Of a DNA stretch of 64,000 bases, positions 14,832-48,080 are shown one piece after another. The number at the start of each line of letters is the position of its first letter. The first letter of the stretch is position 1. Source of the stretch: an uncultured Collinsella sp. GTDB taxonomy: Bacteria > Actinomycetota > Coriobacteriia > Coriobacteriales > Coriobacteriaceae. Under the pieces are notes generated by a model. It did not search any database. It saw only the letters and a program-made list of their open reading frames with translations, and had not been told where the DNA came from. Both the position numbers and the translations under genes were made by a program. The stretch is taken from the NCBI GenBank assembly GCA_900540985.1, contig UQIC01000007.1:1773-65772 (forward strand). Direction: 5' to 3'.

Positions 14832-14840
14832 CCATCTAAT

Positions 14841-14912
14841 AGTTGCGGTGGAATAGTTCCTAGAATGGCCAGCTTAAGGGCAAAACAGGAACTATTCCAC
14901 CGCAACTTTTTT
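14841..14912 (+). terminator. Rho-independent terminator (21-bp perfect stem + T6)
   Basis: AGTTGCGGTGGAATAGTTCCT...AGGAACTATTCCACCGCAACT followed by TTTTTT. Confidence 0.65.
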
Positions 14913-16886: not shown

Positions 16887-16905
16887 CCTTCATCAAACAA
16901 CGATT

Positions 16906-16968
16906 GGTGCAAACTAACCTGGCCCCTTTGCACCAACTTGGTGCGAAGGGGCCAGGTTAGTTTGCACC
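16906..16968. repeat. Large perfect hairpin (22-bp stem) of unknown role
   Basis: GGTGCAAACTAACCTGGCCCCT...AGGGGCCAGGTTAGTTTGCACC with a palindromic loop. Not followed by a T-run. Confidence 0.5.
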
Positions 16969-16972
16969 ATAG

Positions 16973-22089: not shown

Positions 22090-24264
22090 ATGAACCTCCG
22101 CTCATCTCTTGCCTGCACCTCGAGCGATATCGCTCGCTGGGGGCTGCGCTCCGTCCTTAAGCGCCAGGGTGGCGTACTCCCCGGCCGCATCGCCATGAAG
22201 ATCGACCCCGAGTTGCTGAGCGACCTTGCCGGCCTTGTCGACCGCAGCGTGGTGATCACCGGCACCAACGGCAAGACCACCACCTCCAACCTCATCGCCG
22301 ACGCTGTTGCCGCCAGCGGTGCCACCGTGGTATGCAACCGCGCCGGCAACAACATGGAGCCGGGCGTGGTGGGTGCACTGCTCGAGGCGCGCAGCGGCCT
22401 CAAGCGAGCCGGCGGCAAGCGCGTGGGCGTTTTTGAATGCGATGAGCTCTACACCGTGCGCGTCCTGCCCAAGCTCAAGCCGACGTACTTCGTGCTGCTC
22501 AACCTGTTCCGCGACCAGCTGGACCGCTACGGCGAGATTGACCACACCCAGGACGTCATCGCCCACGCGCTGGAGCTTTCGCCGGCAACGACGCTCATCT
22601 ACAACGCCGACGACCCGCTGTGTGCCGCAATCGCCGCGCGCGTTCCCAACGCGAGCATCGCCTTTGGCATCGACGGCGCCACCAACACCGAGTCCGACCG
22701 TATTAGCGACTCACGTTTTTGCTCACAGTGCAACGCACCGCTGGAGTATGACTACGTGCAATACGGCCAGCTCGGCGCCTACCATTGCCCCTCGTGCGGC
22801 TGGGCCCGCCCTGCGCTTGTCCGTCGCGTGACGGGCGTGAAGCTCGGCTGCGACGGCTACGGCTTTGACCTGGTGTTTGGATCTGCGTCCGACGCGGCTG
22901 CCGTACACATCGCCACGCGCTACAACGGCCTGTACATGGTCTACAACGTTGCCGCCGCCTTCTTTGCCGCACATGAGTTAGGCGTGGATACGGCGCACCT
23001 GCAGCCCACGCTCGATGCCTACGTCCCCGCCGGCGGACGCATGGGCCGCTGGGATATCGCCGGCCGCACCGTCGAGGCCAACCTGGCCAAGAATCCCGTA
23101 GGCTTCGATCGACAGATCCAGTCCATCAAGACGGCAGGCGGCAGACTCTGCGCTTTCTTCCTCAACGACAACGATGCCGACGGCCACGATGTATCGTGGA
23201 TCTACGACGTCGACTTCGAGCGCATCGCCGACACGCCGGGTCTTGTCGCCTTTGCCGGAGGCACGCGTGCGCACGACATGCAGGTACGCCTCAAGTACGC
23301 CGGCATCGATGCCGCGATTATCTCGGACGTCGCGCAGGCAATTGGCGCCGTGGCAGACGAGGCCGCCAATGACACCTTCTACGCCGTCGCCAACTACACG
23401 GCCTTCCCGCCGCTGGTCAAGGAGCTCGACGAGCTGAAAGGCGCTGCCGCCGACGCTGTTGCCGGGCGCGCCGTAGCCCGTGCCGACGGCAGCGCTCTTC
23501 CTGTCGGCATCGCGCCAGTCGAGCTTTCGAGCCCGCTGCGCATCGTCTACCTGTATCCCGATGCCCTTAACCTCTACGGCGACGGCGGCAACGTCATCGC
23601 CCTCGAGCGCCGCTGCGCCTGGCGTGGCATTCCCGTGCGCGTGGACGAGGTCCGTATGGGCGAATCACTCGATCTCACCGATGCCGATATCGTCATGATG
23701 GGCGGTGGCTCCGACCGCGACCAGCTAGCCGTGGCACACGAGCTGCTCGCCCAAAAAGACAAGGTCGCGGCCTATGTTGAGGATGGCGGCTCGCTGCTTG
23801 CCATCTGTGGCAGCTATCAGCTGCTCGGCCGTTCGTACTATATGGGCGAAGATCGCATCGAGGGCCTGGGCGTCATTGCCGCCGAAACCGTACGCGGCTC
23901 CGACCGCCTGATCGGCAACGTTGCCGTCAAGACCGACCTGTCACCCGAGCCCTTTGTGGGATTCGAGAACCATGGAGGTCGCACGCTTTTGGACGCTGAG
24001 GCCACGCCGCTCGGAACGTCCGTCGTCACGGGCACCGGCAACAACGGCGACGATGGCTTTGAGGGCCTGATCTACAAGGGCGTCATCGGCACGTACCTGC
24101 ATGGCCCGGCGCTGCCCAAGAACCCCGAGCTCGCCGACTGGCTGATCGCCCATGCCCTCGAGCGCCGTGGCGATGCACAGGCCGCCGCCCTGCTGCCGCT
24201 CAAGCCCCTCGATGACACCTACGAGCACGCCGCCCACGACGCCGCCATGAAGCTCCTCCCCTAG
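22090..24264 (+). CDS. murT-gatD: Fused MurT-GatD lipid II isoglutaminyl synthase (Mur ligase-like + DUF1727 + class I GATase)
   Basis: N-terminal MurT features: P-loop GTNGKTTTSNLIA and a C4 zinc ribbon CSQCN...CPSCG. C-terminal GatD/CobQ-like amidotransferase features: RIVYLYPDALNLYGDGGN and ICGSYQLLG with catalytic Cys. Confidence 0.8.
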   Translation: MNLRSSLACTSSDIARWGLRSVLKRQGGVLPGRIAMKIDPELLSDLAGLVDRSVVITGTNGKTTTSNLIADAVAASGATVVCNRAGNNMEPGVVGALLEARSGLKRAGGKRVGVFECDELYTVRVLPKLKPTYFVLLNLFRDQLDRYGEIDHTQDVIAHALELSPATTLIYNADDPLCAAIAARVPNASIAFGIDGATNTESDRISDSRFCSQCNAPLEYDYVQYGQLGAYHCPSCGWARPALVRRVTGVKLGCDGYGFDLVFGSASDAAAVHIATRYNGLYMVYNVAAAFFAAHELGVDTAHLQPTLDAYVPAGGRMGRWDIAGRTVEANLAKNPVGFDRQIQSIKTAGGRLCAFFLNDNDADGHDVSWIYDVDFERIADTPGLVAFAGGTRAHDMQVRLKYAGIDAAIISDVAQAIGAVADEAANDTFYAVANYTAFPPLVKELDELKGAAADAVAGRAVARADGSALPVGIAPVELSSPLRIVYLYPDALNLYGDGGNVIALERRCAWRGIPVRVDEVRMGESLDLTDADIVMMGGGSDRDQLAVAHELLAQKDKVAAYVEDGGSLLAICGSYQLLGRSYYMGEDRIEGLGVIAAETVRGSDRLIGNVAVKTDLSPEPFVGFENHGGRTLLDAEATPLGTSVVTGTGNNGDDGFEGLIYKGVIGTYLHGPALPKNPELADWLIAHALERRGDAQAAALLPLKPLDDTYEHAAHDAAMKLLP

Positions 24265-24274
24265 CACCTCACAA

Positions 24275-24308
24275 CCACAAAGGGGACAGGCACCTTTGTG
24301 GTGGTTTT
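24275..24308 (+). terminator. Rho-independent terminator of murT-gatD
   Basis: CCACAAAGG...CCTTTGTGG followed by TGGTTTT. Confidence 0.6.
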
Positions 24309-24322
24309 GACCCATCCCAGCG

Positions 24323-24466
24323 GTTTGTCTCAATCTGCAACATCTAGACCGTTAAAAGTCGTCTTACTGTTACAGAATGAGATGTTCGTCCCGACGCCTG
24401 CCTTTTGTCTCGATCTGTAACAGATAGAGCCGATTTGCCCGCCCAGATGTTACAGATTGAGATATT
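24323..24466. repeat. Array of four 15-bp GTTACAGATTGAGAY-like motifs in alternating orientation (two tandem hairpins)
   Basis: Sites at 24325, 24366, 24405 and 24445. Sites 3 and 4 pair 15/15 with two G-U pairs. The block is bracketed by direct repeats CCTTTGTGGTGGTTTT at 24293 and 24491. Confidence 0.5.
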
Positions 24467-24562
24467 TGAAAATCGGAATAGAAGCCTACTCCTTTGTGGT
24501 GGTTTTCCAGTTTGCCAACGATATACGCGCCGGCAAAAAAGTCTGCTATACTCTTTCCCGCT

Positions 24563-24639
24563 GTCCCCATCGTCTAGCGGCCAAGGACGCCACCCTTTCA
24601 AGGTGGATATCGCGGGTTCGAATCCCGCTGGGGGCACCA
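24563..24639 (+). tRNA. tRNA-Glu (anticodon TTC)
   Basis: Cloverleaf with acceptor GTCCCCA/TGGGGGC, anticodon loop CTTTCAA, T-arm GCGGGTTCGAATCCCGC, and an encoded CCA. Confidence 0.85.
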
Positions 24640-24650
24640 CAGAATCTGAG

Positions 24651-24685
24651 AAGCCCGTTACCAATTCGGTAGCGGGCTTTTTGCT
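24651..24685 (+). terminator. Rho-independent terminator after tRNA-Glu
   Basis: AAGCCCGTTACC...GGTAGCGGGCTT followed by TTTTT. Confidence 0.6.
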
Positions 24686-24689
24686 ACCC

Positions 24690-24745
24690 ATGCGCCGGGA
24701 TTCGAACCCGACAGGGTGCGGATCCCGGCATCATCGCAAGGCCTG
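24690..24745 (-). other. tRNA-like 3' fragment (T-arm GGGTTCGAATCCCGG) without a complete cloverleaf
   Basis: The minus strand reads ...CCCTGTCGGGTTCGAATCCCGGCGCATGGG. No matching 5' acceptor or anticodon arm was found. Confidence 0.25.
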
Positions 24746-25021
24746 TGGTCAAAAAATGGCAAATATGAGTACTGTTACCATTTTAGTTACAGCGATTTCA
24801 TGCCTTCAGAAGGCGATTTAGCCGTCAGGCGTCCTACGGCGGAAAAATTGCAGACGTTTATCGGCTAAGTACTTGGACATATGTTGCGTAACACTTCATA
24901 TTTTGCAAATAAATAATGCTACAGGACTTGTGACAGTACTCATATTTGACGTTTTTTGCCCACAACCCTTTATACCTAGGCATATCGGTAGCAAAACGAG
25001 CTTCAAAGCGCCCTTCGCAAA

Positions 25022-25054
25022 CAAAAACCGGGGCCCGCATGATGCGGACCCCGG
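25022..25054 (-). terminator. Rho-independent terminator of the glutamine synthetase gene
   Basis: CCGGGGCCCGC...GCGGACCCCGG hairpin followed by T5 on the minus strand. Confidence 0.55.
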
Positions 25055-25085
25055 CTCAATACCGTGACGATATGTCAGTTACGCT

Positions 25086-27173
<2,088 letters not shown>

Positions 27174-27392
27174 ACGGAACTCCCTTCGTATCGGCACCGC
27201 GTGAGAAGCGGTGTTGATTACTAACGAACGAGTCATAGCTTAGACTCGCCGTGTTTCCGCAACATTACCGTTATGTTGCTGTCGCGAAACCAATCAATGA
27301 GGTTACCGCATCGCGGCGGCGTTGCCACCCTCAACAGCCAATCAACTGTATAAATTGCAGACCTTTCCCCATGGTTTAAGGGTAGTCAATTT

Positions 27393-27450
27393 GGGATGGG
27401 GCTCCATTAACTGGTATTTCACATCAGATACCAGTCTTTATAGCCCCATC
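27393..27450. other. Imperfect two-stem hairpin in the 360-bp leader between glnN and metF
   Basis: Outer stem GGATGGGGCT/AGCCCCATCC and inner stem CTGGTAT/ATACCAG. Confidence 0.3.
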
Positions 27451-27599
27451 CTAGATTGGCCACCCTGTTATAGGGAATGCCGATAGCAAAGCATTTTCGA
27501 TTGGTATCCCCAAATAGCGAGTGAAACTCCACCGTGACACAGTGGTGCTGTAGAATCCTTACAACACATCACACTATTACGCATCTAGAGGAGCACGAT

Positions 27600-47985: not shown

Positions 47986-47986
47986 A

Positions 47987-48002
47987 TGTTTCACGTGAAA
48001 CA
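47987..48002. promoter_or_regulatory. parS site 1 (TGTTTCACGTGAAACA)
   Basis: Perfect 16-bp palindrome matching the ParB-binding parS consensus. Confidence 0.8.
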
Positions 48003-48025
48003 TAATGGATACTAACAACTTGCAG

Positions 48026-48041
48026 TGTTTCACGTGAAACA
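48026..48041. promoter_or_regulatory. parS site 2 (TGTTTCACGTGAAACA)
   Basis: Identical perfect palindrome. Confidence 0.8.
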
Positions 48042-48064
48042 TGGCGGTTGATATCGAATCGGAA

Positions 48065-48080
48065 TGTTTCACGTGAAACA
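48065..48080. promoter_or_regulatory. parS site 3 (TGTTTCACGTGAAACA)
   Basis: Identical perfect palindrome, 40 nt upstream of parA. Confidence 0.8.

Follow-up and report, generated by a model that had tools for sequence, protein, structure and literature searches.

What is the block of repeats that lies between the genes for a fused MurT-GatD protein and for tRNA-Glu in a Collinsella genome, and how did it come to lie there? The locus is on contig UQIC01000007.1 of an uncultured Collinsella sp. (assembly GCA_900540985.1), of which a stretch of 64,000 nucleotides (forward-strand positions 1,773 to 65,772) was analyzed; this stretch is called the window, and its own numbering is used below. An earlier note had described a 16-bp direct repeat flanking four alternating 15-bp motifs upstream of the tRNA gene, and had proposed a short interspersed element that duplicated its target in the manner of a miniature inverted-repeat transposable element (MITE), a structured small RNA, or an array of binding sites for a regulator of the tRNA. 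We found that the motif array belongs to a family of intergenic arrays that exists across the genus, is modular, and is under sequence constraint. On balance we favor, with reserve, the reading that the block is one copy of a Collinsella-specific intergenic palindromic-repeat array family, comparable to REP (repetitive extragenic palindrome) and BIME (bacterial interspersed mosaic element) sequences, with a putative binding protein.

Anatomy of the block

The region is composed of the following features, with strand given where a feature has one.

22090-24264: open reading frame (ORF) for fused MurT-GatD, 724 aa; the hairpin starts 7 nt past its stop codon
24265-24520: insertion/deletion block made up of the hairpin module, the array, a half module and short joints, delimited by alignment; clade-specific presence
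24271-24308, plus strand: hairpin module; 5' arm 24271-24283, loop GGACAGGCA 24284-24292, 3' arm 24293-24305, T tail to 24308
24309-24327: joint of 19 nt ending in GTTTG, from sequence and monomer logo
24328-24342, minus strand: motif 1, TGTTGCAGATTGAGA on the minus strand; 1 mismatch to consensus
24343-24367: loop 1, 25 nt, TCTAGACCGTTAAAAGTCGTCTTAC; matches the family loop consensus nCTAG-N6-AAAA-N6-CTAGn
24368-24382, plus strand: motif 2, TGTTACAGAATGAGA; 1 mismatch to consensus
24383-24407: link of 25 nt from hairpin unit 1 to unit 2
24408-24422, minus strand: motif 3, TGTTACAGATCGAGA on the minus strand; 1 mismatch to consensus
24423-24447: loop 2, 25 nt, GATAGAGCCGATTTGCCCGCCCAGA; family loop consensus in reversed orientation relative to loop 1
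24448-24462, plus strand: motif 4, TGTTACAGATTGAGA; exact consensus
24491-24506, plus strand: second copy of the module arm CCTTTGTGGTGGTTTT, no partner arm
24544-24552, plus strand: extended -10 element TGcTATACT, predicted from sequence as the tRNA-Glu promoter; outside the block
24563-24639, plus strand: tRNA-Glu (UUC), a neighbor outside the element

The description given in the earlier note proved accurate in its main points. The two copies of CCTTTGTGGTGGTTTT, at 24293-24308 and 24491-24506, are exact, lie 198 bp apart from start to start, and are the sole two matches in the 64 kb at up to 2 mismatches (0.00 expected). The first copy forms the 3' arm of the hairpin past murT-gatD, and the second stands without a 5' arm. 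Between them lie four 15-nt motifs in alternating orientation, each 0 or 1 mismatch from TGTTACAGATTGAGA; matches at up to 3 mismatches number 6 in the window against 0.72 expected, a count reached by none of 100 shuffles. Motif starts follow one another at exactly 40 bp, all three spacers being 25 nt, a regularity that the earlier note did not mention, and a semi-conserved CAAAC or GTTTG adjoins every outward-facing motif in the monomer logo. The four motifs fold into two tandem hairpins of -18.0 kcal/mol (HP1) and -25.7 kcal/mol (HP2; z = -7.5, 14 of 15 pairs formed). The entire block constitutes a large imperfect palindrome, with fold z-scores of -6.0 and -6.65 on the two strands.

A genus-wide family of arrays

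One genome per bacterial species was scanned with the pattern TCTCNNTCTGNAACA-N15-45-TGTTNCAGANNGAGA, for which the chance expectation was estimated at about 0.1. The pattern was found in at least 120 genome stretches totaling 0.86 Mb. The listed matches were all from Collinsella, Coriobacteriaceae or gut bins, except for one bin labeled Acutalibacteraceae, whose locus is orthologous to Collinsella loci. These stretches contain 754 motifs and 145 arrays, and the arrays group into about 24 orthologous intergenic site clusters. A single assembly holds at least 4-5 arrays, and a hand-worked estimate of the Chao type, based on cluster sizes, puts the number of sites at roughly 25-35. The idea of a short interspersed element is thus borne out to the extent that the motif array is a multi-copy family with further copies in relatives. 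Of eight matches in viral contigs, six are host DNA that flanks prophage calls, located at sites already known, and are not phage-borne arrays. Full-text literature searches turned up neither an account of repeats of this kind in Collinsella or Coriobacteriia nor anything relevant on REP, REPIN or RAYT there; the family is apparently undescribed and new for Coriobacteriia.

The architecture seen in the window holds across the family. Neighboring motifs are 40 nt apart in 493 cases and 41 nt apart in 85, together 578 of 610; minus-plus pairs are 40 nt apart in 350 of 354, and from a plus-strand motif to the next minus-strand motif the distance is 40 or 41 nt. Each unit consists of a minus-strand motif, a 25-nt loop and a plus-strand motif, which together make a 55-bp palindrome, and links of 25 or 26 nt chain the units together. 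The single 15-mer TGTTACAGATTGAGA is non-palindromic, so that stems arise from motif pairs only. Arrays contain 2-14 motifs, chiefly 4, 6 or 8, and they open with a minus-strand motif in 117 of 122 and close with a plus-strand motif in 116 of 122. Their ends, a minus-strand start and a plus-strand end followed by CAAAC-like bases, have the form of terminal inverted repeats.

Comparison of sites indicates how the arrays change and spread. At one orthologous site the unit number is 4, 5, 5, 6, 10, 13 and 14 in different species while the spacers stay recognizably orthologous, which indicates that arrays gain and lose whole units. The window array is 73-78% identical to arrays at other sites over 140-190 nt, and its loop 2 clearly resembles loop 2 elsewhere, for example at locus L064. 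Across the family, the best between-site spacer identity averages 0.51 with a maximum of 0.83, well above shuffled spacers (mean 0.35, maximum 0.44), and this similarity suggests that the family spread by copying of multi-unit segments and not by independent assembly.

The hairpin module, laid out as AACCACCACAAAGG-GGACAGGCA-CCTTTGTGGTGGTTT, is a second recurring part of the family. In the window it has a 13-nt stem with 92% complementarity, a 9-nt loop, a T4 tail and a free energy of -16.5 kcal/mol, and its fold z-score is only -1.6; a terminator consensus scan with a loop limit of 8 nt did not list it. Neither did a simple promoter scan list the extended -10 of tRNA-Glu. Judging from its sequence, the capping module resembles a terminator and, at this locus, probably marks the end of the murT-gatD transcript. 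We counted 37 copies in 25 of the 120 loci; with that of the window there are 38, of which 32 are no farther than 120 nt from an array. Roughly a fifth of the arrays are flanked by a module on a single side (14 on the left, 9 on the right), and three are flanked on both; at four other sites the module is colinear with the array in stem and loop, at 15-90 nt from it. Comparison of 46 unique copies shows a conserved loop, GGACAGGCA, with 32 changes in the 3' arm against 84 in the 5' arm. The region of the downstream CCTTTGTGGTGGTTTT does not fold into the module hairpin on the minus strand, and the downstream 16-mer is a lone copy of the module's better-conserved arm, either from a decayed second module or from a partial duplication. 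Modules point toward the array in 25 copies and away in 7, which reduces to 9 versus 3 independent site-sides and is a trend only. A suggestion that A-to-G changes in the module reflect strand-specific G.U wobble, as in the RNA strand of a terminator, was withdrawn because the counts were 22 versus 22.

The orthologous spacer was compared among relatives. The block is absent, as a gap of 257 alignment columns, in L122/L123, L127 and L128, whose MurT-GatD proteins are 84-85% identical to that of the window. The gap begins just past the stop codon and stops some 20 nt short of the tRNA promoter, and these empty sites have 17-22 unrelated nt from the stop codon to AAGTCTGATATACT. The block with the same four motifs is present in L121 (95%), L093 and L072. 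The array is also missing in more distant relatives (75% and 70%), which makes a gain in the window's clade the parsimonious account. At L128 (3680-3702), the 21-nt spacer of the empty site contains CCACACCACAAG, which resembles the module 5' arm CCACCACAAAGG; this likeness may be accidental, or it may point to a sequence favored for landing.

Relatives that are without the block carry arrays of diverged motifs on the other side of the tRNA gene, between tRNA-Glu and glnA-III (type III glutamine synthetase), at the following positions.

L122/L123, 3912-4050
L127, 4446-4585
L128, 3868-4145
L138, 11601-11741

Their motifs TGTGCAGATCTCAGA and GTGCATATCTCAGAC are also 15 nt long and alternating, with 25-27-nt spacers and an 82-83-bp period. 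These arrays were seen only at the tRNA-Glu/glnA spacer, and a metagenome scan returned the same locus once. They possibly represent sister families.

Constraint, mechanism and rival explanations

The motifs and the spacers evolve at different rates. Between orthologous arrays (182 ordered pairs of equal length), 3.6% of inner motif positions differ, compared with 14.4% of loop and 16.2% of link positions, so that motif divergence is approximately 4 times slower than spacer divergence. Motif labels were drawn from one pair member only, which limits ascertainment bias. The bases next to the motif are conserved as CTA and CAAAC, not as GTAG. Links start and finish with CAAAC or GTTTG. Loops have a fixed length, 301 of 352 are unique in sequence, and they share a weak oriented consensus, gcTAG.cGccaAAA.cgggtCTAgc, which is A/T-rich at its center and is present in either orientation, with orientations mixed within arrays.

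The arms of the hairpins, in turn, varied independently of each other. Compensatory covariation between hairpin arms was detected at no stem position. For the common T/C polymorphism at motif position 11, unpaired and paired combinations are equally frequent, with z = +1.5 across loops and -4.1 across links. Apparent covariation within loops was also considered and rejected: the negative z-scores were traced to the single oriented loop consensus occurring both ways. Slow motif divergence together with independently varying arms argues that the sequence is conserved and not the pairing. The arrays are indifferent to how the genes around them are oriented. All 125 arrays examined fall outside called genes; the flanking genes are convergent in 47, divergent in 34 and tandem in 33, and many arrays lie just past gene ends, adjoining terminators. 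From constraint without covariation, rigid phasing and indifference to flanking gene orientation, we infer recognition of the DNA by a protein.

In the mechanism that we propose, the 15-mer with its adjacent CTA and CAAAC would be the recognition site of a sequence-specific protein, which would act on DNA either as duplex or as extruded hairpin. Recognition, via selection or copy correction, would hold the motifs near-invariant while the spacers drift. Slippage or unequal recombination between motifs, which the steps of whole 80-bp units fit, would let arrays grow and shrink, and rare copying of multi-unit segments would have seeded arrays at new sites. The window array occupies the gap between the murT-gatD hairpin and the tRNA-Glu promoter.

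Partners of the arrays were sought among their neighbors. In Pfam and NCBIfam scans, 40 genes adjoining arrays at 24 sites were ordinary chromosomal genes, including those for EF-Tu, RF3, DXP synthase, glycogen phosphorylase, Nramp, phosphotransferase system (PTS) components, LacI/GH1 and ThiD. No transposase, Y1_Tnp, integrase or Cas domain was found among these 40, and an all-against-all comparison showed no recurrent family among neighbors. Within the approximately 0.86 Mb of array-centered loci, no autonomous insertion sequence (IS) with matching inverted repeats was found. Motif pairs 1.2-1.4 kb apart were found to enclose one of three genes.

DUF559-like gene between arrays: L008 4785-6243; also L113, L036, L050, L065, L048, L119, L015, L088
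368-aa AAA+ ATPase with winged-helix C-terminus between arrays: L030 4672-6229; L037 2360-3916
Nramp transporter between arrays: L112 2567-4324

The first encodes a 364-aa protein with a weak match to DUF559 (nuclease-like); it has arrays on both sides, 3-53 nt from the ORF ends, in 9 of 9 species showing the gene. A paralogue of the AAA+ ATPase (32% identical), in L107, also adjoins an array. Sequence searches of the PDB with the DUF559-like protein and with the AAA+ protein that has the winged helix-turn-helix (wHTH) tail returned no transposase, and none of the three bracketed genes is present in the 64-kb window. The DUF559-like and AAA+/wHTH proteins are candidate partners or cargo of array-mediated recombination.

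Several points weigh against the reading of a protein-bound, REP/BIME-like family. The slow divergence of the motifs could stem from gene conversion among copies and not from per-site selection. Neither a binding protein nor a transposase or RAYT-like gene came to light among the array neighbors. Both strands of the block fold far better than shuffles, which leaves room for a role as RNA, and loops add about -2 kcal/mol over shuffled loops, mainly through their TAG/CTA ends. The copy number, dozens of sites, is far under that of classical REP families. As for the sampling, the near-consensus search pattern under-samples degenerate copies, raw counts are inflated by orthologous loci, and gene calls came from a crude caller based on GC content at third codon positions (GC3).

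A bolder form of the same proposal is that the arrays are a new nucleoprotein platform or repeat system, in which a lineage-specific protein reads a 15-bp word head-to-head and tail-to-tail every 40 bp, with modules as caps. We regard this form as doubtful. If it were true, the diverged sister words TGTGCAGATCTCAGA and GTGCATATCTCAGAC would imply co-evolution of protein and repeat like that of RAYT-REP or Cas-repeat pairs, and the candidate enzymes would be the DUF559-like nuclease-type and AAA+/wHTH genes, which are bracketed by arrays wherever they are seen.

Among the alternatives, a still-mobile, selfish REPIN-like element is unlikely. The 55-bp palindromes would fold as single-stranded DNA and be copied by a RAYT/IS200-type (HUH) or other transposase, and the motifs would then owe their conservation to replication from master copies and not to a host function. 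Such an element would fit the inverted doublets in tandem clusters, their position outside genes, their dispersal over about 24 sites and the likeness of spacers from one site to another, and the A/T-rich loop center would favor extrusion. However, the sites are stable across many species, with a single lineage-specific gain inferred, and the approximately fourfold better conservation of motifs over spacers is not predicted by pure master-copy dynamics. RAYT genes are typically flanked by their repeats, whereas no Y1 transposase occurs among the 40 neighbors; furthermore, the motif is non-palindromic and is without a GTAG-type head.

A function at the RNA level is improbable. The arrays would be transcribed, for example in 3' untranslated regions, and their hairpins would stabilize mRNA, terminate transcription or yield small RNAs. 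Hairpins of -18 to -26 kcal/mol, the location of many arrays just past gene ends near terminators, and the extra pairing supplied by the loop are in line with this possibility. On the other hand, a search of 23500-25500 against Rfam 15 at E up to 1 returned only tRNA-Glu, the arms show neither compensatory covariation nor a preference for paired T/C variants, and loops of either orientation are mixed inside arrays. All arrangements of flanking genes are represented, divergent promoter regions being about as frequent as tandem contexts, and the window array itself follows a terminator-like hairpin and precedes the next promoter. The small-RNA proposal of the earlier note was therefore not upheld.

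Quite improbable, too, is a MITE-like origin, in which a motif-bounded non-autonomous transposon landed in the murT-gatD terminator and duplicated the 16-bp CCTTTGTGGTGGTTTT. The exact repeat that flanks the array, the absence of the block in relatives and the inverted motifs at array ends, which resemble terminal inverted repeats, speak for it. A target duplication, however, needs one 16-mer in the empty site, and both CCTTTGTGGTGGTTTT and the hairpin are missing from L122, L127 and L128, so that the reading fails there. The 16-mer is moreover an arm of the module that recurs beside arrays at unrelated loci, and hence no target-site duplication; gaps of 19 and 28 nt separate the two repeats from the outermost motifs; and none of the 40 neighboring genes scanned encodes a transposase. 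Significant flanking direct repeats were found at only 3 of 24 representative sites, with inconsistent lengths and offsets, and two of the three are explained by module arms. A two-step variant, in which the module would have arrived first and the array second, is conceivable, but in the viral-contig search no hairpin-only intermediate (a single CCTTTGTGGTGGTTTT followed by CCAGTTTGCCAACG or CCAGTTTGCC, with no array) was found. The third flanking repeat, the sole significant one that module arms do not explain, is a 10-bp direct repeat, CCAGGGGCGG, located 30 nt to the left and 13 nt to the right of the L001 array (2711-2926; p ~0.01 versus shuffles).

Finally, an operator array for a regulator of tRNA-Glu or murT-gatD is practically out of the question: the array is placed some 80 nt upstream of the tRNA promoter, with phased inverted sites that look operator-like, but the same arrays stand beside unrelated genes at about 24 sites, no tRNA occurs among the array neighbors examined apart from the window locus, and relatives without the block keep an intact and identical extended -10, no link between array and tRNA-Glu expression having emerged at the level of sequence.

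Other repeats, significance and known systems

Other repeats were observed in the window. Between the terminators of tRNA-Glu and glnA-III lies an element of about 210 bp (24749-24960) with 16-bp perfect terminal inverted repeats CAAATATGAGTACTGT at 24760-24775 (plus strand) and 24933-24948 (minus strand), which match at 23 of 26 positions over 26 bp. L121, the ortholog, also has the CAAATATGAGTACTGT pair, as does another genome at a different locus (L019, 7153/7337), and this element therefore looks genuinely MITE-like. On the minus strand at 24690-24730, a 3' tRNA part contains CGGGATTCGAACCCG, the reverse complement of the tRNA-Glu T arm; ARAGORN called no gene here, and the fragment is probably the remnant of an attachment site. 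A large serine recombinase follows directly after tRNA-Glu in L126, and IMG/VR contigs L133-L135 join the tRNA-Glu locus to prophage-like DNA; together these suggest that tRNA-Glu is an integration hot spot.

Farther away, three copies of a perfect 16-bp palindrome, TGTTTCACGTGAAACA, lie at 47986-48080, 40 and about 38 bp apart; this cluster has no relation to the 15-mer family and has the look of operators for a dimeric regulator. Three further inverted repeats were noted.

14838-14910: inverted repeat with 24-nt arms and a 25-nt spacer (AATAGTTGCGGTGGAATAGTTCCT)
16905-16969: near-perfect palindrome with 32-nt arms
27379-27466: imperfect inverted repeat with 39-nt arms

Collinsella is an abundant actinobacterium of the human gut, and the arrays bear on practical work with its genomes. 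Variation of unit number at fixed sites offers a ready marker of the multi-locus variable-number tandem repeat (VNTR) type for strain typing in metagenomes. The arrays are also a probable source of assembly breaks and of false calls of CRISPR or small RNAs in Collinsella metagenome-assembled genomes. In annotation, the block should be labeled neither as a regulator of the tRNA nor as a gene for a small RNA, nor as the scar of a transposon. The arrays further provide a tractable system for studying REP/BIME-like function where no RAYT was found beside any array.

Among known systems, the closest in layout are the BIME-2 clusters of REP sequences in Escherichia coli and other enterobacteria. Like them, the Collinsella arrays are extragenic, alternate a short conserved element with linkers of fixed length classes, vary in unit number, often lie near gene ends or terminators, and are scattered among ordinary genes. 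They differ in that REP units are imperfect palindromes of 20-40 nt with a GTAG-type head, whereas the Collinsella element is a 15-nt non-palindromic motif without such a head, its palindrome arising from the pair only. REP sequences occupy hundreds of sites compared with about two dozen for the arrays, no RAYT is present among the 40 genes beside arrays at 24 sites, and an extra capping hairpin module and a lineage within Coriobacteriia set the arrays further apart. The RAYT-mobilized REPIN clusters of Pseudomonas, likewise among the nearest analogues, share the inverted-doublet hairpin unit, tandem clustering and long vertical inheritance; unlike REPINs, the Collinsella arrays have no cognate transposase among their neighbors, fewer copies, and motifs fourfold better conserved than spacers.

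Bacterial MITEs such as Correia/NEMIS and RUP are similarly short, non-coding, bounded by inverted repeats, polymorphic for presence and able to form long hairpins, but the arrays have a modular tandem layout, without consistent target-site duplication and, in the array-centered loci, without a related autonomous IS. With CRISPR the arrays share short conserved repeats, variable spacers of fixed length and unit numbers that differ between strains; in contrast to CRISPR, their repeats alternate, their spacers follow a consensus and are vertically inherited and not acquired, many small arrays occur per genome, and no cas domains were found among the 40 neighbors. The pneumococcal BOX elements (boxA-boxB(n)-boxC) and the neisserial NIME/dRS3 are modular intergenic mosaics. 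As multi-module composites with variable internal units they resemble the Collinsella arrays in organization, whereas there is no sequence relationship, and the direct repeats of BOX contrast with the alternating 40-bp period of the Collinsella family.

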